A program made the translations under genes and the position numbers. Below the pieces are notes generated by a model. The model ran no database searches. It saw only the letters and a list, made by a program, of their open reading frames with translations, and had not been told where the DNA came from. 55,932 nt of DNA from Actinomycetota bacterium (GTDB taxonomy: Bacteria > Actinomycetota > Humimicrobiia > Humimicrobiales > Humimicrobiaceae), in the NCBI GenBank assembly GCA_051744345.1, contig JBNJCW010000004.1:1-55932 (forward strand), in the 5' to 3' direction. This document shows positions 3,141 to 45,668 of this stretch, one piece after another. Every line of letters begins with the position of its first letter. Positions within the stretch are counted from its first letter, which is position 1.

Positions 3141-3388
3141 GCATGGATTCCTGCAGCATTTTTTATGCAGCAGGGATTTCCTACACTTTGTCCCCCATGC
3201 CTTAAATCCAGCCTACTGGTAAAAGGCGGGTTTAAGAAACTGCATCTGATAACATCCCGGGCTAAAAATAGCCTGTTATCCGGGGTGCCCAACATTTGAT
3301 TTAAGCTTTACATTTATTTGCACTTATATATACTATATTACTTAATAACTTAAATTACATATATTTTACCTATACTAAAGGATACACA

Positions 3389-5152
3389 TTGAAACCTGAG
3401 AGCGAACTCCTTACTGGAAATGAAGCTATTGCCAGAGGTGCATGGGAAGCAGGGGTAAAGGTAGCCACCGCCTATCCGGGCACGCCTTCTACAGAGATTT
3501 TGGAAAACATATCTGTTTATGGGGAAATCTATGCCCAGTGGTCGGTTAATGAAAAGGTTGCCCTGGAGGTTGCATCAGGAGCAAGTATTGAGGGAGTGAG
3601 GTCCCTGGCGGCTATGAAGCATGTGGGCTTAAATGTTGCCGCAGACCCTTTTATGACCCTGGCTTATACCGGGGTAGGAGGAGGGCTGGTATTGGTTTTT
3701 GCTGATGACCCGGATATGCACAGTTCCCAGAATGAACAGGATAACCGCTATTATGCCAAGATGGCAAAGGTTCCCATGCTGGAGCCTTCAGACAGCCAGG
3801 AAGCCAAAGACTTTACAAAAGCAGCCTTTGATATAAGCGAGAAGTATGACTGCCCGGTCCTTGTAAAAAGCACTACCAGGATTTCACATTCGAGGTCCCT
3901 GGTAAGCCTTGGGCAAAGGGTGGAGAGAAAGAAGCCGGAATATGAAAAGGACTGCCGCAAATATGTAATGATACCTGCCCACGGGAGGCTAAGGCATCAG
4001 GTTCTGCTCAAGAGATGGGAAAAGCTTACCAGTTATGTTAACCGGAGCGGCTTAAACTATATCTACTCTCCTAAAAACAGGGAGCCTGGTGATGTGGGCA
4101 TAATTACCAGCGGCATAAGTTATCAGTATGCAAGGGAGGTTTTTAGCGGATACCAGATATTAAAACTGGCTTTAACCAGCCCCCTGCCGGAGGAAGTTAT
4201 TGCTAAATTTGCCCGGGGCAAAAAACTTTTACTCATAGTAGAGGAACTGGAGCCCTTTCTGGAAGAGGGGATAAAGTCATTGGGCCTGGGAGCAGAGGTG
4301 GCAGGGAAACAATATTTTCCCCAGTACGGAGAACTATCCCTGGCAACCTTAAAAGAGGTAAAAAGAAAGCTTTTCGGGAGCAGGGAACCTGCAAGATCCG
4401 GGCAAGGCCCGGTTAATGTAGCTCCCAGGCCCCCGGTGCTCTGTGCGGGGTGTTCGCACAGGCCTGTTTTTCATGTGCTTAAGAAACTGAAGCTGAGGGT
4501 TATGGGGGATATAGGGTGTTACACCCTTTCAGTGCTGCCGCCCCTCAGTTCCATGGATACCTGCTTATGCATGGGTGCGGGGGTAGGCCAGGCACTGGGC
4601 ATGGAAAAAGCCAACCCCGGGCTTAAAGGCAAGCTGGTATCGGTTATAGGCGATTCTACTTTTTTCCATTCCGGCATAACTTCCCTTATAGATAATGTTT
4701 ATAATAAGGGAAGCAATGTAATAATAATACTGGATAACAGGATAACCGCTATGACCGGCCACCAGGCCCATCCGGGGATGGGAAAGACACTGAAAGGAGA
4801 AGATGCAGGTATTATCTGGCCTGAAGAGATTGCCCGGGCAGTGGGAGCAGCCAGTGTACAGGTGGTGGATTCTTATGATATGAAGGGGTTTGAAGATGTT
4901 TTAAAAAAGGAGCTGTCCAGAGAAGAGGTTTCGGTTATAGTGGCCAGGCAGGAGTGTGTGCTGTTGAATAAAAACAGGGGACAGGCAACTTTTTATATCG
5001 ACCCCGATGCATGCAATGCCTGCGGCGCCTGCCTGAAATTTGGCTGTCCTGCCATACAGTACAGGGATAAAACATACATTATAGACAAGCTGTTATGCAC
5101 TTCCTGCGGGGTTTGTGTCCAGTTGTGTAAATTTGATGCCATAAAAGAGTAA
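3389..5152 (+). CDS. iorA: Indolepyruvate:ferredoxin oxidoreductase alpha subunit
   Basis: LLTGNEAIARGA, AYPGTPSTE, PPVLCAGCSHR, TPP motif GDSTFFHSG...N, and two C-terminal 4Fe-4S motifs. TTG start. Confidence 0.95.
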   Translation: MKPESELLTGNEAIARGAWEAGVKVATAYPGTPSTEILENISVYGEIYAQWSVNEKVALEVASGASIEGVRSLAAMKHVGLNVAADPFMTLAYTGVGGGLVLVFADDPDMHSSQNEQDNRYYAKMAKVPMLEPSDSQEAKDFTKAAFDISEKYDCPVLVKSTTRISHSRSLVSLGQRVERKKPEYEKDCRKYVMIPAHGRLRHQVLLKRWEKLTSYVNRSGLNYIYSPKNREPGDVGIITSGISYQYAREVFSGYQILKLALTSPLPEEVIAKFARGKKLLLIVEELEPFLEEGIKSLGLGAEVAGKQYFPQYGELSLATLKEVKRKLFGSREPARSGQGPVNVAPRPPVLCAGCSHRPVFHVLKKLKLRVMGDIGCYTLSVLPPLSSMDTCLCMGAGVGQALGMEKANPGLKGKLVSVIGDSTFFHSGITSLIDNVYNKGSNVIIILDNRITAMTGHQAHPGMGKTLKGEDAGIIWPEEIARAVGAASVQVVDSYDMKGFEDVLKKELSREEVSVIVARQECVLLNKNRGQATFYIDPDACNACGACLKFGCPAIQYRDKTYIIDKLLCTSCGVCVQLCKFDAIKE

Positions 5153-5164
5153 AGGATATTTTTT

Positions 5165-5800
5165 ATGGGAAAAGACAGCAGGGTTAACCATATGGAGAGG
5201 GCAAGGGAAAGGTGTTTTCGGCTTCTGGGAGAAGGAAACACGGTTTCGGTTATGTTTTGCGGCGTGGGAGGGCAGGGGATAATTTTGGCTTCCACTGTTT
5301 TGGCCAGGGCCGCCCAGCTGGGAGGTTTTGATGTAAAGGTCTCAGAGGTTCACGGCATGGCCCAGAGGGGAGGCAGCGTTGTTGGCAGTGTGAGGCTGGG
5401 CAGGAAAGTTTTTTCCCCTACCATAGACGAGGCTGACCTTATAGTAGCCCTGGAAAAGCTGGAAGCGGCAAGGCATATGGGGAAGCTTGTCCGCGGCGGT
5501 TTTCTGCTGGTAAATGATTATGAGATAGTGCCTGTCTCCATGTATGCAAAAAAAGAAGAATACCCCCGCAATATACTGTCAGATATCTCCAAAATTACTC
5601 CCAGCTACAAGGCAATAGAGGCCGGAAAGATTGCGGCCAAACTGGGCCAGCCCAGGGTCCTTAATACCGTACTTTTGGGTTTTCTTTCCAATTTCCTGCC
5701 TATAGATAAAAAATGCTGGATAAGCTCTATCAAACAAACCATACCTTCCAGCTCTGTAGGGATAAATATCCAGGCCTTTGAAAGGGGCCTAAAATATTAA
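5165..5800 (+). CDS. iorB: Indolepyruvate:ferredoxin oxidoreductase beta subunit
   Basis: GVGGQGIILAS and SEVHGMAQRGGSV motifs; adjacent to iorA. Confidence 0.93.
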   Translation: MGKDSRVNHMERARERCFRLLGEGNTVSVMFCGVGGQGIILASTVLARAAQLGGFDVKVSEVHGMAQRGGSVVGSVRLGRKVFSPTIDEADLIVALEKLEAARHMGKLVRGGFLLVNDYEIVPVSMYAKKEEYPRNILSDISKITPSYKAIEAGKIAAKLGQPRVLNTVLLGFLSNFLPIDKKCWISSIKQTIPSSSVGINIQAFERGLKY

Positions 5801-5820
5801 TTTTAGCTTAGGAGGAAAAA

Positions 5821-6216
5821 ATGCCTGTAAAGCAAATAACTGTTTTTTTAGAAAACCAGACCGGCAGGCTTGCGGAAGTAGCCGGGATACTCAAAAGGCA
5901 GAATATCAACTTGCAGGGCTTTTCCACTACTGAAGCAAGGGACTACGGGATACTCAGGCTGGTAGTTTCTGATACCGAGAAAGCCAGAGAGAGCCTCAAA
6001 GACGCCGGTTTTACAACCCATGTTGCTGATGTAATCTGCGCTAAAGTAAAAGATGAGCCGGGAGAGCTGTTAAAGATACTGGAGCTTCTGGCCAGATCAA
6101 ACATAAATATTGACTATATTTATGTAATAGCCCAGACCAGGATAGTCTTAAGCGTTAAGGATTTGGAAAAGGCGGAGCAGGTTCTTGCAGATAACGGGGC
6201 TAAGCTTTGTACATAG
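5821..6216 (+). CDS. ACT domain (amino acid-binding) protein
   Basis: KQITVFLENQTGRLAEV and DEPGELLKILELL tandem ACT repeats; typical neighbour of ior/paaK. Confidence 0.88.
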   Translation: MPVKQITVFLENQTGRLAEVAGILKRQNINLQGFSTTEARDYGILRLVVSDTEKARESLKDAGFTTHVADVICAKVKDEPGELLKILELLARSNINIDYIYVIAQTRIVLSVKDLEKAEQVLADNGAKLCT

Positions 6217-6259
6217 TTTTTAATAAAAACTTATAACTAAAAAAAGAAAGGGGGTTTAG

Positions 6260-6364
6260 ATGCTTGGACTGGGGTTTTGGACTTTTCTTGCGTACATCCT
6301 GTGCATAATAAGTACTGTAGTCTGTGTGGTCTACGGGGCCATAATGTGGAACAAGAACAAATAA
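6260..6364 (+). CDS. Small single-pass accessory protein of the sodium:solute symporter
   Basis: Not in the ORF track. ATG 6260 gives MLGLGFWTFLAYILCIISTVVCVVYGAIMWNKNK*, with RBS gaaagggg upstream. The CV.YG...WN pattern is recalled from symporter small accessory proteins. Confidence 0.8.
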   Translation: MLGLGFWTFLAYILCIISTVVCVVYGAIMWNKNK

Positions 6365-6390
6365 AAAAATGATTGGAGAAAGGAGGGAAA

Positions 6391-7995
6391 GTGAATACTC
6401 CTCTGTTTAGTATCATTGTGGTGGTTTACCTGCTGATAATAGGTTTTCTGGGTTATCTGGGTTATACGGGGACCAAGGATTCAAGGGACTTCTTGATTGC
6501 CGGGGGCCAGATACACCCCTATATTATGGCCATATCCTATGGGGCGACATTTATATCAACCTCTGCCATTGTGGGCTTTGGCGGCGCCGCGGGGGTCTTT
6601 GGCATGGGGCTTTTGTGGCTTACTTTCTTAAATATTGCCCTGGGCATAGCTGTGGCCTTTATCTTCTTTGGCAAAAGAACCAGGCAGATGGGCCAGAATC
6701 TGGACGCCCATACCTTTCCTGAATTTTTGGGAAGGAGGTATGACTCGAGGTTTATCCAGGGGCTTGGCGGCCTAGTTATATTCCTGTTCATGCCTATTTA
6801 TACCGGAGTGGTGCTTATCGGGGCAGCAAGATTTATAGAGAGCACCCTTAATATAAACTTCATGGTGGCCCTGTTTATTTTTTCCATAATTATTGCCGCC
6901 TATGTTATCGCAGGGGGCCTTAAGGGGGTTATGTATACCGATGCGCTGCAGGGCACCATTATGTTTTTGGGCATGCTGGTATTGATATTCATCACCTATA
7001 TAAGGCTGGGGGGGATTGTACCTGCCCACCAGGCCTTAAGTGATATTTTCGACAAGGTGCCGGATGCCCTGGTGGCGGGAGGCCATCAGGGGTGGACCAA
7101 TATGCCTTCCCTGGGCTCACCGCTCTGGTGGTCCCTTGTTTCAACCATCATTATGGGCGTGGGCATAGGGGTTTTAGCCCAGCCCCAGCTGGTGGTCAGG
7201 TTTATGACTGTAAGAAGCTCAAAAGAGCTTAACCGGGCTGTGCTTGTGGGGGGCATCTTTATACTGTTTATGACTGGTGTGGCTTTTGTGGTAGGCTCCC
7301 TGTCCAATGCCTACTTTTTCCAGGAAACAGGGCAGATTGCCCTGGAGGCTGCAGAAGGTAACTCCGATTCGATAATCCCCGTTTATATAAACATGGCCAT
7401 GCCTACATGGTTTGTTTACCTGTTTATGCTTACCCTGCTGGCGGCGGCGATGTCTACCATAAGCTCGCAGTTCCATACCATGGGTTCAGCATTTTCCAGA
7501 GATATTATTGGAATCAGGAGCAGGGAAACCCGGGCTGATGAAGATGCAGCGGTTGAAAGGCCCACCAAGGGGCTGCTGGTTACAAAGATAGGGGTAATTA
7601 TAGGCATTATATTAAGCGTATTGCTGGGCTATTACCTGCCTACAAGCATTATAGCCAGGGGCACTGCCCTGTTCTTTGGGGTAGCAGCAGCAACTTTTTT
7701 GCCCATGTATATATGCGGCCTGTACTGGAAAAGGTCAACCAAGGCAGGTGCGGTAAGCGGAATGGTGGTCGGGGTAGTTACCAGTGTCTTCTGGATGCTG
7801 TTTATTCATAAAGACAATTCTGCTATGATAAGAATCTGTAATTTATTATTTGGAAAAGATACCCTGGCAAGCTACCCCTGGTCCGCTGTGGATCCCATAC
7901 TGATAGCATTTCCCGCAGCTTTCATAGTAACCATTGCGGTAAGCTTGTTTACCAAACCGCTTCCCGGGGGATTAATAGAAAAAAGCTTTAAATAA
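6391..7995 (+). CDS. Sodium:solute symporter family transporter
   Basis: About 13 TM helices. SYGATFISTSAIVGFGG, GGLKGVMYTDALQG and LLAAAMSTISSQ motifs. GTG 6391 follows RBS aaggaggg (ORF track starts at 6373). Confidence 0.93.
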   Translation: MNTPLFSIIVVVYLLIIGFLGYLGYTGTKDSRDFLIAGGQIHPYIMAISYGATFISTSAIVGFGGAAGVFGMGLLWLTFLNIALGIAVAFIFFGKRTRQMGQNLDAHTFPEFLGRRYDSRFIQGLGGLVIFLFMPIYTGVVLIGAARFIESTLNINFMVALFIFSIIIAAYVIAGGLKGVMYTDALQGTIMFLGMLVLIFITYIRLGGIVPAHQALSDIFDKVPDALVAGGHQGWTNMPSLGSPLWWSLVSTIIMGVGIGVLAQPQLVVRFMTVRSSKELNRAVLVGGIFILFMTGVAFVVGSLSNAYFFQETGQIALEAAEGNSDSIIPVYINMAMPTWFVYLFMLTLLAAAMSTISSQFHTMGSAFSRDIIGIRSRETRADEDAAVERPTKGLLVTKIGVIIGIILSVLLGYYLPTSIIARGTALFFGVAAATFLPMYICGLYWKRSTKAGAVSGMVVGVVTSVFWMLFIHKDNSAMIRICNLLFGKDTLASYPWSAVDPILIAFPAAFIVTIAVSLFTKPLPGGLIEKSFK

Positions 7996-25027: not shown

Positions 25028-27506
<2,479 letters not shown>

Positions 27507-27510
<4 letters not shown>

Positions 27511-28886
27511 GGCAGGATATGGGAAAAGAATTTAATAATGTGCTGGAGGCGATTGGGAAAACCCCGCTGGTTAAGCTTAACAGGATAAGCAGGGGAATAA
27601 AATCAACCATATACGTTAAGCTTGAATGCCTTAATCCCGGCGGCAGCGTAAAAGACAGGATAGGGCTTTCCATGATAGAAGCGGCGGAAAAAGACGGCTC
27701 TCTGAAGCCGGGAGGCACTATTGTGGAGGCTACAGCAGGCAATACGGGGGTTGGCCTGGCCATGGCGGCAGCCATTAAAGGCTACCGCACTATTTTTGTT
27801 ATGCCGGATAAGATGAGTGCCGACAAGATCAGCCTGCTTAAAAGTTATGGGGCAGAGGTGGTCATTGTCCCCACCTCGGTTTCCCCGGATTCACCGGACA
27901 GCTATAACGGGGTGGCTGACAGGCTGGCCAAAGAGCTTCCCGGGGCCTACCGGCCCAACCAGTTTGAAAACCCTAACAATCCCCATGCCCATTACCTTAC
28001 AACCGGCCCGGAAATCTGGGAGGATTCCGGCGGAAGGGTTGAAGTTTTTGTGGCCGGCATGGGAACAGGGGGAACCATTTCCGGGGTGTCCCGTTACTTG
28101 AAGGAAAAGAATCCGGATATAGAAATAGTGGGGGCGGATCCCGAAGGTTCCATCCTGTCCGGGGATAGCCCCAAATCTTATATGGTGGAGGGGATAGGGG
28201 AAGATTTTATACCCAAGACCTTCAACCGCCAGGTGGTGGACCATATGGTCAGGGTAAGCGATAAGCAATCCTTTAATACCGCCCGGCGGCTGGCCCGGGA
28301 GGAGGGGCTGCTGGTAGGGGGGTCATCGGGCACGGCAGCGGCCGCTGCCCTAAAGTTTGCCCAGAGGCTTAAAACCCCCCGCTATATTGTGGTTTTGCTG
28401 CCCGATACGGGCAGAAACTACCTGACCAGGATATTTTCCGATGAGTGGATGCAGGAGAAAGGTTTCTGGGAAGAGGGAGAAGTAAGGGTAACCAGGCTGG
28501 GGGAGGTTGTGGACCAGAAGAATTTCCAGGCCATAATCGGGGTTAGCCCGGAGGATATGGCGGCTTCCGCGGTAGGGCTGATGCAAAAACACAATATATC
28601 CCAGCTTCCGGTTATAGACCGGGACAGGGTAGCCGGGAGCCTCGATGAGGCTTCTTTGATGAAGCTTCTCCATGACGGCATGGATTTTTCCCATACACCT
28701 GTTTCTGCGGTTATGGGAAGCCCTTTGCCTACCCTGGACCAGGATGTTGATATGCTGGAGGCTTACCGGATTCTCCTATCCGGTACCACCGCTATCATAG
28801 CTTTAAAAAACGGGGTTCCGGCAGGGGTGATCACCAGGGCGGATTTGATAAATTTCTGGTCCAATAGGAGGAAAGATGAAATTTGA
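27507..28886 (+). CDS. cbs: Cystathionine beta-synthase with C-terminal CBS domain pair
   Basis: KLECLNPGGSVKDR (PLP Lys), EATAGNTG, GMGTGGT, and C-terminal CBS repeats (ISQLPV, GVITRAD). Probable start is ATG 27519. Confidence 0.9.
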
Positions 28887-30012
28887 AACCAAAGCTATAC
28901 ATGAGGGACAGCAGCCTGATCCCGGGACGGGCGCAGTTATCCCTCCTGTATATCAGACTTCCACCTACCGCCAGGATGCAGTCGGCAGGCACAAAGGCTA
29001 TGAATACTCCCGCACCGATAATCCCACCAGGGATGCCCTGCAGAAGGTGCTTGCTTCCCTGGAGGGAGCCGAATACGGGCTTGCTTTCTCTTCGGGGGTG
29101 GCGGCTACCACTGCTGTTTTCAGCCTGCTTGGCCCCGGAGACCATGTGGTGGTGGGGGATGATATCTATGGGGGAACATACCGGCTGATAGAAAAGGTGT
29201 TTGTGCCCTGGGGCCTTAAGGTAAGCTATGCAAATCCGGATGCCGCCGGAAGCTTTGAGGATTTGGCCCGAAAGGATACTAAACTAATCTGGGTAGAGAC
29301 CCCTACCAACCCACTTCTGAAGGTGATTGACCTGGAGAGGCTGTCAGCCCTTTGCAGGAAAAAGAAAATCATTCTGGCCGTGGATAATACCTTTGCCACC
29401 CCTTATTTTCAAAAACCCCTGGATTTCGGGGCAGATATTGTGGTGCACAGCACCACCAAGTACCTCTCCGGGCACAGCGATATTATAGGGGGCGGGGCAG
29501 TGACCGGCAGCAAGGAAATACACAGCCGCATGAAATTTTACCAGAATGCAGCGGGAGCGGTTCCCGGCCCCTGGGATTGCTGGCTGGCAATCAGGGGTAT
29601 AAAGACGCTGGCGGTAAGGATGAGAGAGCATGAAAGAAACACCCTGTACCTGGCCCATTATTTGAAAAGCCATCCCCGGGTGGAAAAAATACACTACCCC
29701 GGATTACCGGACAGCAGATACCATGGCATTGCCTGCAGGCAGATGGAGGGTTTTGGAGCAATGATAAGCCTTGAGCTTAAGGGAGGGTATCCGGCGGTAG
29801 AGAGATTCCTTTCAAAACTTAAGCTGTTCCTGCTGGCAGAAAGCCTGGGTGGAGTAGAGTCCCTGGTATGCTATCCTCCCCGGATGACCCATGCCTCTTT
29901 TTCTGAAGAGCAGAGAAGACAGAGGCAGATAAATAATAACCTGGTAAGGCTCTCTGTGGGTATTGAAAACAGGACAGATCTCAAAGCTGACCTGCAGCAG
30001 GCTTTAAGTTAG
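28876..30012 (+). CDS. Cystathionine gamma-lyase / gamma-synthase
   Basis: YEYSRTDNPTR, ETPTNP, VDNTF, HSTTKYLSGHSD and AESLGGVESL. Confidence 0.92.
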   Translation: MKFETKAIHEGQQPDPGTGAVIPPVYQTSTYRQDAVGRHKGYEYSRTDNPTRDALQKVLASLEGAEYGLAFSSGVAATTAVFSLLGPGDHVVVGDDIYGGTYRLIEKVFVPWGLKVSYANPDAAGSFEDLARKDTKLIWVETPTNPLLKVIDLERLSALCRKKKIILAVDNTFATPYFQKPLDFGADIVVHSTTKYLSGHSDIIGGGAVTGSKEIHSRMKFYQNAAGAVPGPWDCWLAIRGIKTLAVRMREHERNTLYLAHYLKSHPRVEKIHYPGLPDSRYHGIACRQMEGFGAMISLELKGGYPAVERFLSKLKLFLLAESLGGVESLVCYPPRMTHASFSEEQRRQRQINNNLVRLSVGIENRTDLKADLQQALS

Positions 30013-30035
30013 CAATGACAATGGAGGTGACTGGT

Positions 30036-30857
30036 TTGGCAGAGAAATCCCCTGAAGAAAAATTATGCCTGCTGAGGGAGAAGATTAGAAGCATGGGCAG
30101 GGTTGCGGTTGCCTTTTCGGGAGGAGTGGACAGCTCCTTTCTTCTAAAGGTTTCCTCGGATACTCTGGGCAAAAATGCCATGGCCATAACCATAGATTCC
30201 CCTTCTTTTCCCCGGAAGGAACTGGACAGGGCGGCCGGGTTTGCCAGAAAATACGGGATAAGCCATGTGGTGATAAAGGCCGGCCTGGGAGGCAATAAGT
30301 TTGTTAAAAATGACCGGCTGAGGTGTTATTACTGCAAAAGCGAGGAGTTCAGGAATATAATTGAAACAGCGAAAGAATACGGGATTGGAGCTGTTTTAGA
30401 TGGCCAGAATGAAGATGATGCCGATGACTACCGGCCTGGCTCCCGCGCAGCCTCAGAACTGGGAGTAATAAGCCCCCTAAAAGACTGCCGGCTAAAAAAG
30501 CATCAGATAAGGGACCTGTCCAGGAAAATGGGGCTTTCCGGCTGGGACCGCCCTTCACTTGCCTGTCTGGCCAGCAGGGTCCCTTACGGGACAGAAATAA
30601 CCGAAAGCCTCTTAAAGATTATCGATCATTTGGAAAGCTACCTCCTGGAGAAGGGGTTTTCCCAGGTAAGGGTAAGACACCATGGACATTTAGCCAGGAT
30701 AGAGGTAGACAGGGATGAATTTAAAAAGTTTCTGGACAAAAACCTGGCGGCTGATATTGCAGAAGAATTTAAGGGGCAGGGCTATGTTTATATTACCCTT
30801 GATATTGAAGGATACCGGACGGGCAGCATGAATAAATTGATTAATCGGCCAGAATAG
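30036..30857 (+). CDS. larE: ATP-dependent sulfur transferase LarE family
   Basis: PP-loop AFSGGVDS, RCYYCK, DYRPG, ACLASRVPYG and VRVRHHG. TTG 30036 follows RBS ggaggtga (ORF track starts at 30015). Confidence 0.9.
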   Translation: MAEKSPEEKLCLLREKIRSMGRVAVAFSGGVDSSFLLKVSSDTLGKNAMAITIDSPSFPRKELDRAAGFARKYGISHVVIKAGLGGNKFVKNDRLRCYYCKSEEFRNIIETAKEYGIGAVLDGQNEDDADDYRPGSRAASELGVISPLKDCRLKKHQIRDLSRKMGLSGWDRPSLACLASRVPYGTEITESLLKIIDHLESYLLEKGFSQVRVRHHGHLARIEVDRDEFKKFLDKNLAADIAEEFKGQGYVYITLDIEGYRTGSMNKLINRPE

Positions 30858-34467: not shown

Positions 34468-34979
34468 ATATCGTAGGCCACAAAAAGGGGAAAATTTTCC
34501 AGCTGAAGGCTGTATATGGCTTCTGCGCCCAGCTCATGGTAGGCGATCTGTTCTATTTTTTTTATCCTGGTAGAAAGGTAAGCAGCAATTCCGCCGACAG
34601 CAACGAAATAAACGGCGCAGTATTTTTTAATCATTTCCTTAAACTGGCTGCTTCTTGCCCCTTTGCCAATCATTGCCCTCAAACCGTTTTTAAGCAGTGG
34701 TTCGGTGAGGCTGTCCATGCGGGCGGCGGTGGTGGGGCCGACTGAGCCGCTTGTTTTTCCCGGCGGGGTGGGGGAGGGCCCCACATAGAATATGGTTGAG
34801 TCCTTGAGGTTTACGGGAAGGGGTTTGTTTTTCCTGATGCATTCAGCAATCCTTTTGTGGGCCATATCCCTTGCCCCGAATACCTCCCCGGTTAAAAACA
34901 CCATGTCCCCGGCCTTTAGGCTTTTTATTTTCTCCCCGGTTAAGGGGGTGCTTAGCTGTATGTCTTTATGGTTATTCAT
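34425..34979 (-). CDS. Fe-S hydro-lyase (fumarate/tartrate) beta subunit
   Basis: L.TPLT.E.I.SLKAGD.V.LTG....ARD.AH, GPTTAARMD, GKG and LGAEAI..L....FP. Real start is ATG 34979 (MNNHKD); the ORF track extension to 35090 lies inside the upstream gene. Confidence 0.92.
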   Translation of the reverse strand: MNNHKDIQLSTPLTGEKIKSLKAGDMVFLTGEVFGARDMAHKRIAECIRKNKPLPVNLKDSTIFYVGPSPTPPGKTSGSVGPTTAARMDSLTEPLLKNGLRAMIGKGARSSQFKEMIKKYCAVYFVAVGGIAAYLSTRIKKIEQIAYHELGAEAIYSLQLENFPLFVAYDIYDGDIFEQALRME

Positions 34980-35805
34980 CGAAGTCCGTATATTTGTCTT
35001 TTTTAAAGTAGTTGTCGTAGGAGTATATGGGTTTTCTGGTATCCTTGGTTCTCTTGCCTCTCCTGGAGCTGAAGGCAAGGGCGAATACAAGGAAGAGTAT
35101 AAACAGTACGATAAGGCCCAGTATCACCAGCAAAAAATAAGGGAGGAATTTGGTCCTCTTTCCTTCAATTCTTATGTCTTTTTCCTGGCCGTAACTGATA
35201 TTCCACAGGGCAATATTGCTGTTTGATACCACATCTGCATTTGAATCGACTATTTTTACCGGGAATTTTATCTGGTAGGCGATAGAGAGCATTTCCGGGT
35301 CTGCAGCCAGCAGGGCATCCAGCCGATTATAATCTGAATCCTTTTCGGTGGTGGCCAAAAGGCTTTCATCTACCAGCATGTCTACATAATCATAAAAAAA
35401 ATAGTCACTGTAAAAAAAGTAATCGCCTATGGTCATCTTAGCGTAAAACCGCCTGGGCGGCTCTTCGGAAAAATTATCTATGGAAATGTGCTGAAGAAAA
35501 TTTATGTCTTTGAAATTAATGGCTGATTTAAAATAGGTAAAATTTTCGTCCTGGTTTGTTTCTATATCGCCCTCCGGCAAAGAAGAGATGATCCTTTCAT
35601 ACAGGGTCTCATCACCGGCAAGCACGACTTCCCCCCGCTGCAGGTACTCTGTTTTTACCGCCACCTCAACCACCCTGGTTCCGCTGTAATCGGCATTGAT
35701 TTCGGTATAGATGTCTATAATGGACTGGTCGCAGGAGGTAAGAATGACAAGGAGGAAGAAAATAGCAGAAATAATTAAAATTTTTTGCCCAAGGGAAATC
35801 TCCAT
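34972..35805 (-). CDS. Putative lipoprotein with C-terminal TM anchor (LppM/DUF3153-like)
   Basis: Signal peptide with lipobox LTSC, a soluble domain, a C-terminal hydrophobic helix and a basic tail. Confidence 0.55.
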   Translation of the reverse strand: MEISLGQKILIISAIFFLLVILTSCDQSIIDIYTEINADYSGTRVVEVAVKTEYLQRGEVVLAGDETLYERIISSLPEGDIETNQDENFTYFKSAINFKDINFLQHISIDNFSEEPPRRFYAKMTIGDYFFYSDYFFYDYVDMLVDESLLATTEKDSDYNRLDALLAADPEMLSIAYQIKFPVKIVDSNADVVSNSNIALWNISYGQEKDIRIEGKRTKFLPYFLLVILGLIVLFILFLVFALAFSSRRGKRTKDTRKPIYSYDNYFKKDKYTDFDE

Positions 35806-38690: not shown

Positions 38691-38719
38691 TTGACGTTTA
38701 TATTTAATGTTGTTAGCAT
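38691..38719 (+). promoter_or_regulatory. Putative promoter of the activase fusion gene
   Basis: TTGACG (38691-38696), 17 bp spacer, TAGCAT (38714-38719) with TG extension at 38711-38712. Supports a start at ATG 38755. Confidence 0.5.
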
Positions 38720-38754: not shown

Positions 38755-41700
38755 ATGAAACTTTATATAGGGTACGATATTGGCTCTATCAGCGTAAACC
38801 GTGCCGTAATAGACAGCGGGCGGAATATCATGGATATAATGCCATACAGCAGGCACCATGGCGAGCCCCTGGAATTGGTAAGGGGCGACCTGGAGGCTCT
38901 GTTTAAACAATACGGAAGCAATGATATCTGCGGGATTGCCTTTACCGGCTCGGGAGGCAAGGCTGTGTCCCGGGGCCTGAAGGTTTTGTTTATAAATGAA
39001 ATAGAGGCTTTGATGAATGCGTCCCGGAGCTTTATACCGGATGCCTCCACAGTTATAGATATAGGGGGCCAGGATTCCAAGTTTGTTGACTTGGCTATCG
39101 GTGACTATGCCATGAACGAGCTCTGTGCCGCAGGGACCGGCTCTTTTCTGGATCAGCAGGCTTCAAGGTTCGGGCTTTCCATTGAACAGTTTGCCGAGGT
39201 TGCCTTAAAATCCAGGAGCCCGGAAACCATTGCCGGAAGGTGCAGCGTTTTTGCCAAATCAGACATGATACACCTCCAGCAGGAAGCAGCAAAGGATGAG
39301 GATATAATCCTGGGGCTCTGTTGTGCCATGGCCAGGAGCTTTAAGTCCGGCATTGTTAAAGGCAAAAAATTCAAGCCGCCCGTAATATTTTGCGGCGGGG
39401 TTTCATATAACCGGGCCATGGTCAAGGCCTTCAGCGATATACTGGGCCAGGAACTGGTAGTGCCCGACCATAATGCGTCCATGGGAGCTATAGGGGCTGC
39501 CCTTTCAGCAGCCGGCAGGGGCACTATAGGTACCGGTAATTTGCTCAAAGACATGGATAGTTATATGGGGAGCTTAAAGTATGAAAGGGATACCTTCAAG
39601 CCCCTGGTTTTAGAAAAATCGGCGCTTCCTTCCTACAGCGAAGAAGGCTACCGTTTCGGCAGGGAGAAAGTGGATGCCTATATCGGTATAGATGTGGGCT
39701 CTATCAGCACCAATGTGGTGGCTATCGACAGGGACAAAAAGCTTATATCCAAGTGTTATCTAAGAACTGCAGGCAGGCCCATTGAAGCGGTGCGCAGGGG
39801 CATCTCCATAATTAACAAAAAAGTGGGGGACAGGATCAATGTAAGGGGCTCGGGAACCACAGGCTCGGGAAGGTACCTTATAGGGGATTTCGTGGGCTCC
39901 GATACGGTCATAAATGAAATTACCGCCCAGGCCACTGCTGCTGCGGCCATTGACCGGAGCGTGGATACCATATTTGAGATTGGGGGCCAGGATTCCAAAT
40001 ACATCTCCATGGAAAATGGGGTGGTGGTTGATTTTGAGATGAACAAGGTATGTGCGGCAGGGACCGGCTCTTTTCTGGAAGAGCAGTCAGAGAGGTTTGA
40101 CTTAAAGATAGAGGACTTTGCCCCTATTGCCCTGAAGGCCAAAAACCCCATTGATTTGGGGGAAAGGTGTACAGTATTTATGGAGACCAATGTCTATTCC
40201 CATTACCAGAAGGGGGCAAAGGTAGACAATATACTGGCCGGGCTGGCCTATTCAATCGTTATGAATTACATAAACCGGGTGGTGGCCAGAAAAAAGATAG
40301 GCAAAAAGATTTTCTTCCAGGGAGCGGTTGCCTTCAACCATTCGGTGGTGGCTGCATTTGAAAATTACCTGGGCACCAAAATAATAGTTCCTCCCCACCA
40401 TGAGGTTACCGGGGCCATAGGCACGGCCATAGTAGCCATGGAAAACAGCAGGGGGGATACCAATTTCAGGGGGTTTGAGCAGATTGCTGAAGTAAGTTAT
40501 TCCCAGAAGTCTTTTGAATGCAATGGGTGCCCCAATCACTGTGACATAAAAAAGGTGTCAATCGAGGGCGAAAAACCCCTGTTCTATGGGGGAAGATGTG
40601 AAAAATATGAGAAATCAAAGTCTTCGGCGTCAAGCATCCCCGACTATTTTAAGGAAAGGGAGGATATACTTTTAAATACCTACCGGGCCAGGGGAAATCC
40701 CGGGGCAAAAAAGGTGGGGATACCCTTTACCATGCTTACCTATGAATTTTATCCATTCTGGAGCGCCTATTTTGATAACCTGGGGTTCGAGGTGGTGCTC
40801 TCGGATAAGACCAATAAAAAGATAATTTCGGACGGCCTCTCTTCGGTTATTGCCGAGACCTGCTTTCCCATGAAGGCCATGCTGGGCCATATACATAACC
40901 TGACCCAGAAGGATGTAGACTATATTTTCCTTCCCACCATCAGGGATATGCCTGCCAAAGAGCATGCCATTAAGGGTGACAGGAGGGGAAGTTTCCCTTG
41001 CCCCTTTGTGCAGGGCATCCCCTGCGTGGTCAAGGCAGCCATTGATATGGAGGGGGTCCAGATACTTGATCCCATAGTTAATTTTAGTTTTGAGGGTTAT
41101 GCCAAATCAAAACAGCTTATGGATCTGGGGAAAAAGCTGGGCAGGGGCAGAAAAATAATAAAGAATGCGGTTGATGCCGCCTATCAGGCACAGAGAAACT
41201 TCTATGCCAGCCTCGGGGCCAGGGGCAATGAGGTATTGTCCCAGCTGGACAAAGACGAGCCGGCTATTGTGGTTACCTCCCGTTCCTATAACAGCTGTGA
41301 CCGGGCGGTTTCCATGGACATACCCAACAAATTGAGGGAATGCGGCATAAAGGTCCTGCCCCTTGATTTTCTGCCCGTGGATTCGGTTAACCTTCCTTCG
41401 GAATGGTCCAACCTGTACTGGGAGTTCGGGGACAGGATCATGAGTGCTGCCAGCATCATAGTCAAAGACGACAGGCTCTATCCTGCCTACCTTACAAATT
41501 TTGGCTGCGGCCCCGATTCCTTTATACTCCAGTATTTTGAACGGGAGATGGACAAGCCGTTTTTAAAGATTGAAATAGATGAGCATACCGGCGGAGCGGG
41601 AGTGGTAACCCGCTGCGAGGCTTTTATCGATTCGCTTAAAAACTCAAGGAAAATAAAGCAGAAGTTTGTGCAGGAGAAACCGAAACCGGCGCCGGTGATA

Positions 41701-43014
41701 TTTAAGAAAGATGAGAGGCGGACTATTTACATACCCTATATGAGCGATGGCTCCTATGCCATCCAGGCTGCATTCAAGAACCAGGGCATAGAGGCGGAGG
41801 TAATGCATTCTGATGACCAGACTCTGGAGCTGGGAAGAAGGCATACCCTGGGAAAGGAATGCTACCCGTTTATCATAACCACCGGGGACATACTGAAGAC
41901 CTTAAAAAACAATGACCCCAAAACCTGTGCATTTTTAATGCCCTTAACTTACGGGCCCTGCAGGTTCGGCCAGTACAACAAGATGCAGAAGATAATTATC
42001 CAGGAGCTGGGCTATGAAGGGGTGCCCATAGTGTCACCGGGGGCACCGGAGAGCTCAAGCTTCTACAGGGAATACGATATGGACAGCATGAAGGGCTACA
42101 GGATGCTGGGAAGGGCCATGCAGGGCGTGTTTACCCTGGATAATCTGGATAAGATGCTGCGCGCCACCAGGCCTTACCAGAAGGAGCCCGGGCGGTCAGA
42201 GGCTGCCTATAAAAAGTATCTTGAAGGGGTGGTCGGTTTGCTGGAAAAGGAAAAACATGAGGACCTTTTCCCCAAGCTGGTGGAGCTCCTGACGGAGGCA
42301 AGGAAGGATTTTGAGGCTATAGAAGTCAACAGGGAAAAGAAGCCCCTGATTGGTATTGTGGGGGAAATCTATGTAAGGAACCATCCATACAGCAATAATG
42401 AGATTGTGGAAAAGGTTGAGCAGCTGGGGGGTGAGGTGGAGATACCCACCATATCTGAATGGCCCAGCCATACAACCGCTACCAGCAAGCTGGATAATTC
42501 AATCAAGCAGGCTGACCTTATGTACAAGATTATAGAGGGCCTGCGCCCCGGGGGAAGCAGGAACGGCGGGATTGGGCCCATGGCAGCTGATTACATGAGG
42601 ACCGTGCGCACCTATGTGCTGAACCGGGTAAACAACCGTATTATATCCGGATACCTTAAAAAACTTGCCCGGCCGGTGGAAGGTTTTGTGAGGGGAACGG
42701 ATGACCACAGCATATACCATACCTGGGATAAGGCTGAGCCCTATATCATTAAATGGTTCGGGGAGGCTGCGTTGAGCGTGGGCAAGTCTGTTTCCTGGAT
42801 TGAAGAAGGCTGCGACGGGATAATCAATGTGATGCCGTTTACCTGTATGCCGGGAACCATGGTAACCGCTACCTCCAAAAGGATTAGGGAAAAATATAAG
42901 GTGCCCTGGCTTAACCTTGCCTTTGACGGCCTGGAGCAGGGGACCACAGAGACAAGGCTGGAAGCTTTCATGTACCAGGCAAAGCTTTATGCCCGGAACA
43001 AAGGAAAAAGCTAG
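38755..43014 (+). CDS. Double BadF/BcrAD activase + DUF2229 + HGD-D-like fusion (PlsA/R / Ger-like architecture)
   Basis: Two ASKHA/4Fe-4S activase modules (GYDIGSIS, IGGQDSK, MNELCAAGTGSFL, GRCSVF; GIDVGSIS, IGGQDSK, MNKVCAAGTGSFL, GERCTVF), then C..CPNHC, ETCFPMK, CPFVQ, FGCGPDSF, EIDEH, ECYP, GPCRFGQY, GIVGEIYVR and PFTCMP. Confidence 0.88.
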   Translation: MKLYIGYDIGSISVNRAVIDSGRNIMDIMPYSRHHGEPLELVRGDLEALFKQYGSNDICGIAFTGSGGKAVSRGLKVLFINEIEALMNASRSFIPDASTVIDIGGQDSKFVDLAIGDYAMNELCAAGTGSFLDQQASRFGLSIEQFAEVALKSRSPETIAGRCSVFAKSDMIHLQQEAAKDEDIILGLCCAMARSFKSGIVKGKKFKPPVIFCGGVSYNRAMVKAFSDILGQELVVPDHNASMGAIGAALSAAGRGTIGTGNLLKDMDSYMGSLKYERDTFKPLVLEKSALPSYSEEGYRFGREKVDAYIGIDVGSISTNVVAIDRDKKLISKCYLRTAGRPIEAVRRGISIINKKVGDRINVRGSGTTGSGRYLIGDFVGSDTVINEITAQATAAAAIDRSVDTIFEIGGQDSKYISMENGVVVDFEMNKVCAAGTGSFLEEQSERFDLKIEDFAPIALKAKNPIDLGERCTVFMETNVYSHYQKGAKVDNILAGLAYSIVMNYINRVVARKKIGKKIFFQGAVAFNHSVVAAFENYLGTKIIVPPHHEVTGAIGTAIVAMENSRGDTNFRGFEQIAEVSYSQKSFECNGCPNHCDIKKVSIEGEKPLFYGGRCEKYEKSKSSASSIPDYFKEREDILLNTYRARGNPGAKKVGIPFTMLTYEFYPFWSAYFDNLGFEVVLSDKTNKKIISDGLSSVIAETCFPMKAMLGHIHNLTQKDVDYIFLPTIRDMPAKEHAIKGDRRGSFPCPFVQGIPCVVKAAIDMEGVQILDPIVNFSFEGYAKSKQLMDLGKKLGRGRKIIKNAVDAAYQAQRNFYASLGARGNEVLSQLDKDEPAIVVTSRSYNSCDRAVSMDIPNKLRECGIKVLPLDFLPVDSVNLPSEWSNLYWEFGDRIMSAASIIVKDDRLYPAYLTNFGCGPDSFILQYFEREMDKPFLKIEIDEHTGGAGVVTRCEAFIDSLKNSRKIKQKFVQEKPKPAPVIFKKDERRTIYIPYMSDGSYAIQAAFKNQGIEAEVMHSDDQTLELGRRHTLGKECYPFIITTGDILKTLKNNDPKTCAFLMPLTYGPCRFGQYNKMQKIIIQELGYEGVPIVSPGAPESSSFYREYDMDSMKGYRMLGRAMQGVFTLDNLDKMLRATRPYQKEPGRSEAAYKKYLEGVVGLLEKEKHEDLFPKLVELLTEARKDFEAIEVNREKKPLIGIVGEIYVRNHPYSNNEIVEKVEQLGGEVEIPTISEWPSHTTATSKLDNSIKQADLMYKIIEGLRPGGSRNGGIGPMAADYMRTVRTYVLNRVNNRIISGYLKKLARPVEGFVRGTDDHSIYHTWDKAEPYIIKWFGEAALSVGKSVSWIEEGCDGIINVMPFTCMPGTMVTATSKRIREKYKVPWLNLAFDGLEQGTTETRLEAFMYQAKLYARNKGKS

Positions 43015-45592: not shown

Positions 45593-45668
45593 GCCGATGT
45601 AGCTCAATTGGCAGAGCAGCTCATTCGTAATGAGCAGGTTACCGGTTCAAATCCGGTCATCGGCTCCA
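45593..45668 (+). tRNA. tRNA-Thr(CGT)
   Basis: Acceptor stem GCCGATG/CATCGGC, D arm TAGCTCAATTGGCAGAGC, anticodon arm GCTCA-TTCGTAA-TGAGC, T arm ACCGG-TTCAAAT-CCGGT, encoded 3' CCA. Confidence 0.96.

Follow-up and report, generated by a model that had tools for sequence, protein, structure and literature searches.

The DNA analysed here, referred to as the window, is a stretch of 55,932 nucleotides from contig JBNJCW010000004.1 of an Actinomycetota bacterium of the family Humimicrobiaceae (assembly GCA_051744345.1). A gene at positions 38755-43014 on the forward strand of this window probably encodes a single-chain glycerolipid ester reductase of the PlsA-PlsR/Ger type, as judged from comparisons of its predicted product. 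Its architecture, cofactor ligands and phylogenetic position assign the protein to the PlsA-PlsR/Ger family, of which the gene is an ordinary new member and not a new type of enzyme. By analogy with family members of established activity, the most likely reaction is an anoxic reduction of phospholipids at the sn-1 ester, giving an ether, with a slight lean towards an alkyl ether over a vinyl ether as the product.

Domain organisation and conserved cysteines

The gene is a single intact open reading frame with a complete coding sequence, giving a product of 1419 amino acids and 157.6 kDa, so that the protein of about 1420 residues proposed in the preliminary description was confirmed with correct coordinates. 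Comparison with Pfam revealed two BcrAD_BadFG modules at residues ~1-255 and 310-561 (E 1e-71), and the NCBIfam model TIGR00241 (CoA_E_activ) matched twice, consistent with the two ATP-dependent activase modules described earlier. The first module (38755..39519, forward strand) contains the motifs DIGS and DIGGQD and aligned end to end with HadI (4EHT) with an E value of 5e-30, while the second (39682..40437, forward strand) aligned with HgdC (1HUX) with an E value of 6e-34. In these alignments the DxGS and GGQD phosphate motifs are kept in both modules, and the cysteine pairs C124/C163 of module 1 and C433/C472 of module 2 align with the HgdC and HadI cysteines that hold a [4Fe-4S] cluster at the dimer interface. 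Because both activase modules are contained in a single chain they can form a pseudo-dimer, comparable to the HgdC homodimer.

The activase modules are followed by a linker containing four cysteines, C589-x2-C592-x3-C596...C615 (40519..40599, forward strand), which are invariant in both clades of the family described below and presumably bind a [4Fe-4S] relay cluster. Downstream of the linker is the DUF2229 core of a PlsA-type reductase domain (residues 653-872; 40711..41370, forward strand), which matched PF09989 over profile positions 1-217 of 218 with an E value of 8e-64, in agreement with the DUF2229-like domain proposed previously. The reductase domain extends beyond this core to residue ~962 and contains the invariant cysteines C703, C749 and C918. 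The C-terminal region (residues 991-1417; 41725..43005, forward strand) is a PlsR-like second reductase/dehydratase domain with invariant C1036, C1069 and C1364. This region had been described as an HGD-D-like domain containing cysteines. The domain itself is real, but the match to HGD-D (PF06050) is weak, being confined to residues 1350-1406 with an E value of 8e-5 and a score of 22.7 bits, below the Pfam cut-off of 28.4, and the PlsR-like label fits better (E 8e-16). The same residues also matched a protein of Monoglobus (E 5e-15) that carries the annotation 2-hydroxyacyl-CoA dehydratase, CoA being coenzyme A.

The census of cysteines was taken from an alignment of 47 family members, with invariance determined across 7 clade A and 39 clade B sequences. 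A total of 14 cysteines are invariant in both clades: the ATPase modules and the linker contribute four each, and the DUF2229 and PlsR-like domains three each.

Phylogeny and the possible product

The closest proteins are encoded by metagenome-assembled genomes (MAGs) of Actinomycetota, with identities of 73-85%, followed by matches at 64-67% that are labelled Candidatus Humimicrobiaceae. A further tier at 41-48% includes Syntrophaceae and other Desulfobacterota, Zixibacteria, WOR-3, Nitrospirota, Dehalococcoidales, Bacteroidales and anammox bacteria; among the last, Candidatus Brocadia pituitae gave 44% identity in a full-length alignment and Scalindua 43%. The scan of genome contigs for homologues covered the best 80 loci, nearly all of which belong to MAGs. 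The PlsA of Fusobacterium animalis aligned to residues 1-962 with 27% identity, and the Fusobacterium PlsR, the product of the adjacent gene, aligned to residues 991-1417 with 20% identity and the E value given above. The single-chain Pls of Listeria monocytogenes was 28% identical over residues 3-1236. The PlsA/R-Ger family layout that had been proposed was borne out by the domain order, by matches to PlsA as well as PlsR and by the shared Fe-S cysteines.

A maximum-likelihood tree (LG+G4) divided the family into two fully supported clades. Clade A contains Listeria, Acetoanaerobium, Fusobacterium, Subdoligranulum, Collinsella, Haliovirga and Brevibacillus, and its sister, clade B, contains the window protein together with all of the environmental lineages. 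The window protein therefore lies outside the PlsA(R) clade of the Listeria/Fusobacterium/Collinsella type (clade support 100), to which it is 25-29% identical. When the tree was rooted on the catalytic half, using four split three-gene DUF2229 systems from Monoglobus and from three genomes belonging to sister families of actinobacteria, the two clades jointly formed a monophyletic group with a support of 100 in the Shimodaira-Hasegawa-like approximate likelihood ratio test, clade A being supported at 100 and clade B at 98. In the trees the known enzyme types were represented by the PlsA(R) proteins of clade A and not by the validated Ger of Thermotoga maritima and Desulfatibacillum alkenivorans or the validated PlsA of E. 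faecalis and C. perfringens. The reading in the preliminary description is supported in part: rooting on the split DUF2229 systems puts the protein in one group with the PlsA(R) proteins of Listeria and Fusobacterium, but outside the plasmalogen-synthase clade itself. The catalytic half matched 930 clusters at 50% identity (E <= 1e-30), showing that the PlsA-PlsR/Ger family is very large.

Several other features were observed among these relatives. Cys189, located in ATPase module 1 (window 39319-39321), is present in 39/39 clade B sequences and in none of clade A, where the position is occupied by F, Y, L or A, and is a possible marker of clade B. In place of the fused gene, sister families of the same class or phylum contain split three-gene systems (G025:C47, G035:C17 and G036:C1; loci L098-L100), consisting of a DUF2229 protein of ~330 residues, an HGD-D-like protein of ~380 residues and an activase of ~340 residues with a C-terminal extension that matches the linker region of the window protein up to residues 619-635. 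Monoglobus contains a three-gene operon that resembles these split systems. A plasmid of Paraclostridium bifermentans, pHD0315_2-2 (L087), encodes at 3282-7130 a homologue of 1282 residues with 35% identity across residues 79-1077; neither the four cysteines of the linker nor any of the three in the PlsR domain are present in this protein, which is adjoined by a Crp/Fnr regulator and forms a very long branch, and was omitted from the rooted tree.

The position of the window protein bears on the product that would be formed. Plasmalogens have been made in E. coli by the PlsA-PlsR of C. perfringens and by the single-chain PlsA of E. faecalis, L. cremoris and B. longum subsp. suis (PMC12838417, PMC9702350), while alkyl ethers are the products of Ger, and both activities have been validated with enzymes expressed anaerobically in E. 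coli (PMC13159169, PMC11150832, PMC12838417). It is possible, if the less favoured outcome, that the window protein is a strict plasmalogen synthase, equivalent to PlsA-PlsR and forming vinyl ethers with no onward reduction to alkyl ethers. Its domain order and cysteines are those of the single-chain PlsA of Listeria, the validated single-chain PlsA genes from another actinobacterium and from lactic acid bacteria are of similar size at 4,248-4,920 bp (PMC12838417), and alkyl-ether and vinyl-ether producers are not yet separable by sequence (PMC11868695, PMC13274423). Against this, the protein lies outside the clade of the Listeria/Fusobacterium-type enzymes, and its relatives in Brocadia, Scalindua and Desulfobacterota belong to groups reported to make saturated alkyl ethers (PMC8788747, PMC11868695). 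The slight lean towards an alkyl ether follows from this grouping with anammox and sulfate-reducer-type lineages outside the plasmalogen-synthase clade, and from a size close to that of the D. alkenivorans Ger. The Pfam pattern was also considered as a rule for distinguishing Ger from PlsA and was rejected. In the published pattern of Ger, nothing but small H/D fragments comes after BB-D (PMC13159169); BB-D is found in the window protein and in Brocadia and equally in the PlsA(R) proteins of Listeria, Fusobacterium and Collinsella, and because these clade A proteins show the same pattern it does not discriminate between the two enzymes.

Structure model and possible alternative substrates

An AlphaFold2 model of residues 571-1419 was built with 46 aligned sequences, giving a mean predicted local distance difference test score (pLDDT) of 86.3 and a predicted template modelling score (pTM) of 0.86. 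The only significant PDB matches of the model were the double-cubane cluster protein DCCP (7YZM, 7YYL) and BzdN/O (8S02, 8S2R), each with a probability of 1.0, and for the catalytic half DCCP ranked first with an E value of 2e-5. Each PDB target spans approximately half of the modelled query, as is expected for two tandem domains of the DCCP/BzdN/O fold. The catalytic half consists of two tandem domains of the benzoyl-CoA reductase/hydroxyacyl-CoA dehydratase/DCCP fold, each containing three invariant cysteines.

These matches also bear on the substrate, since the same ATP-driven Fe-S reductase machinery could act in a functionally distinct clade B on another ester, a thioester or a small molecule, as in DCCP. 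This is considered unlikely. The best structural matches are DCCP and subunits of benzoyl-CoA reductase, with no lipid enzyme among them, but the PDB that was searched contains no PlsA or Ger structure, and DCCP and Bzd are the nearest solved relatives. Clade B and the Listeria/Fusobacterium clade are separated by long, fully supported branches at the low identity given above, Cys189 is invariant in clade B only, and no lipid genes adjoin the target gene, all of which would agree with a different substrate. On the other side, all cysteines of the catalytic domains and the full domain order are common to PlsA-PlsR, and the discoverers of Ger count the homologues of the anammox bacteria (Brocadiia) and Desulfobacterota, groups known for alkyl ethers, as Ger homologues (PMC8788747, PMC11868695).

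Proposed reaction and assessment

The genome of the host contains three matches to pyruvate:ferredoxin oxidoreductase (PFOR)-type enzymes and three to PlsY, and no match to the haem-copper oxidase COX1, indicating an anaerobic host with ester-lipid synthesis of the PlsY type. By extension from the published family, the activase cluster of the PlsA-PlsR/Ger-type reductase would be loaded under anoxia by reduced ferredoxin, for example from the PFOR enzymes of the genome. Hydrolysis of ATP would then push a low-potential electron via the linker cluster to the catalytic clusters, where an intact phospholipid, phosphatidylglycerol or phosphatidylethanolamine, would have its sn-1 acyl ester reduced by way of a radical and then dehydrated, giving a vinyl ether (plasmalogen). 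In enzymes of the Ger type a further reduction would give the saturated 1-O-alkyl ether, and the sn-2 position might possibly react as well.

A number of observations weigh against this assignment. No validated enzyme was placed in clade B by a tree constructed without the T. maritima and D. alkenivorans Ger, the protein shares no more than 25-29% identity with the plasmalogen-synthase clade, only about six members of the 930-cluster family have been tested, and no lipid gene adjoins the target. In addition Ger2 of D. alkenivorans, a close and highly similar paralogue of Ger with a mass of 153 kDa, did not yield ether lipids in E. coli (PMC11150832). It is very unlikely that the window protein is a Ger2-like paralogue of this kind, inactive alone or dependent on an additional partner or cofactor, as the gene is the sole DUF2229 gene in an assembly of 1.97 Mb that is 97% complete and 0.7% contaminated, full-length orthologues are conserved in most genomes of the host's family and every conserved cysteine and ATPase motif is kept, as would be expected for a working enzyme.

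Gene and genomic context

The gene starts with an ATG at 38755 and its stop codon is at 43012-43014. The open frame reaches back to 38707, adding 16 residues that have no counterpart in any homologue, and the consensus of the homologue alignment begins MxLYLGxDIGS. The ATG at 38755 is the likely start because it is preceded by AAGGA and the upstream 16 residues are absent from the homologues. A sigma-70-like promoter match, TTGACG-17-TAGCAT with TG, is found at 38691..38719 on the forward strand in the 166-nt gap after the gene for a major facilitator superfamily (MFS) transporter, and is a match to the consensus only. A search of the region upstream of the gene against Rfam gave no element. 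The GC content of the gene is that of its surroundings, and no transmembrane segment was predicted in the 1419-residue protein.

The neighbouring genes encode the MFS transporter and a flavin reductase, followed on the other side by tmk, holB, PSP1 and argS. The order target-tmk-holB-PSP1-argS is conserved in the host's family, unlike the MFS and flavin-reductase genes upstream. No dehydratase subunits were found within ~10 kb of the gene, in accordance with the preliminary description, and the full-length HGD-D genes of the genome are located elsewhere. These are two adjacent genes on contig C9 (35126-37374, forward strand; PF06050, E 9e-67 and 1e-63) that form a classical dehydratase/reductase pair and are unlinked to any activase. 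A stand-alone HgdC-type activase of 267 residues (Pfam E 5e-64) is encoded on contig C34 (17953-18756, reverse strand; L097:5954-6757), adjoining a trehalose synthase TreT-like glycosyltransferase gene and a DUF5752 gene with no dehydratase subunit beside it, and the C9 pair is possibly the partner of this orphan activase. As a candidate for the alternative ElbD-type ether pathway, the best NAD_binding_4 match in the genome was rejected, being a fusion of a sugar epimerase and a methyltransferase and not ElbD, and the genome gave no ElbD-like gene.

Other features of the window include an open reading frame of 277 residues at 34972-35805 on the reverse strand, which matched nothing in Pfam or NCBIfam; it is conserved beside the target gene, at 55-57% identity, in the relatives L006 and L096. 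A transfer RNA gene is located at 45593-45665 on the forward strand (Rfam, 72 bits), between the PSP1-like gene and argS. The region 25055-30857 is a cluster for sulfur metabolism with two pyridoxal phosphate-dependent Cys/Met enzymes, a CBS-domain PALP enzyme, a 'variant_rSAM' radical S-adenosylmethionine protein at 26353-27510 (NF045502, E 4e-103) and LarE, a sacrificial sulfur transferase, at 30015-30857.

Significance

If the enzyme is active, an uncultured anaerobic family of actinobacteria can remodel ester phospholipids into ether lipids, which bears on the biological sources of the non-isoprenoid alkyl glycerol ethers and plasmalogens of anoxic sediments and on the sharpness of the 'lipid divide' between bacteria and archaea. 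The earlier suggestion that this would be notable for an uncultured lineage was overstated, as published homologues of Ger span over 20 phyla, Actinobacteria among them (PMC13159169), and occur in 4 of 146 Actinobacteriota MAGs from the Black Sea (PMC11868695). Since the family, its chemistry and its wide spread were already published, the locus is an added data point and introduces no new principle. It is improbable that clade B (Humimicrobiia, WOR-3, Brocadiia, Desulfobacterota, Nitrospirota and others) forms a functionally distinct branch, for example one making saturated mono- and dialkyl glycerol ethers. If this were true, a distinct clade B acting together with an Mss-type synthase, which is reported in Humimicrobiia MAGs of the Black Sea, could yield membrane-spanning ether lipids, and abundant sediment actinobacteria would be a source of non-isoprenoid ether lipids or of lipids resembling branched glycerol dialkyl glycerol tetraethers.

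Comparison with known systems

The order Act1-Act2-Cys linker-Red1(DUF2229)-Red2(PlsR) of the window protein is identical to that in C. perfringens PlsA-PlsR (CPE1194/1195) and in the single-chain PlsA from E. faecalis (EF1327), Listeria, L. cremoris and B. longum subsp. suis, and all 14 invariant cysteines are common to the PlsA-PlsR of Listeria and Fusobacterium. It differs from these enzymes in its position in the sister clade and in the low overall identity, which falls to 20% in the PlsR part. In Collinsella, and in E. faecalis (PMC9702350), the gene is adjoined by a TetR-type regulator, which is missing beside the gene of the window.

Ger from T. maritima (Tmari_0479, AGL49404) and D. 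alkenivorans (SHJ90043) is likewise a single chain of ~1400 residues, the D. alkenivorans enzyme having a mass of 159 kDa compared to 157.6 kDa for the window protein. Further points of likeness are the BB-D pattern with weak H/D fragments, which the clade A proteins show as well, the anaerobic host and the clade B relatives in Brocadiia and Desulfobacterota. The host of the window protein differs in being a Humimicrobiia-type actinobacterium, and the likeness to validated Ger described here is one of size and layout.

The activators HgdC, HadI and MbdQ align end to end with the ATPase modules of the window protein, including the cluster cysteines, and the BzdN/O fold of the class I benzoyl-CoA reductases (BzdNOPQ, MbdOPQ) is the fold of its catalytic half. 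Unlike HgdC/HgdAB, HadI/HadBC and BzdNOPQ, the window protein has all of its parts fused, with two different ATPase modules in place of a homodimer. It does not have the features of a 2-hydroxyacyl-CoA dehydratase, as its HGD-D match lies below the cut-off and its activases are part of the same chain. The ATPase modules also match DCCP-R, the reductase of DCCP (7YYL, 7YZM), and the three conserved cysteines in each catalytic domain recall the six ligands of the [8Fe-9S] cluster of DCCP and may hold either two cubanes or one double cubane. DCCP is a single-domain homodimer with a separate ATPase, unlike the fused window protein. The known substrates also differ between these groups, being phospholipid esters in the PlsA-PlsR/Ger family and CoA thioesters in the dehydratases and benzoyl-CoA reductases.

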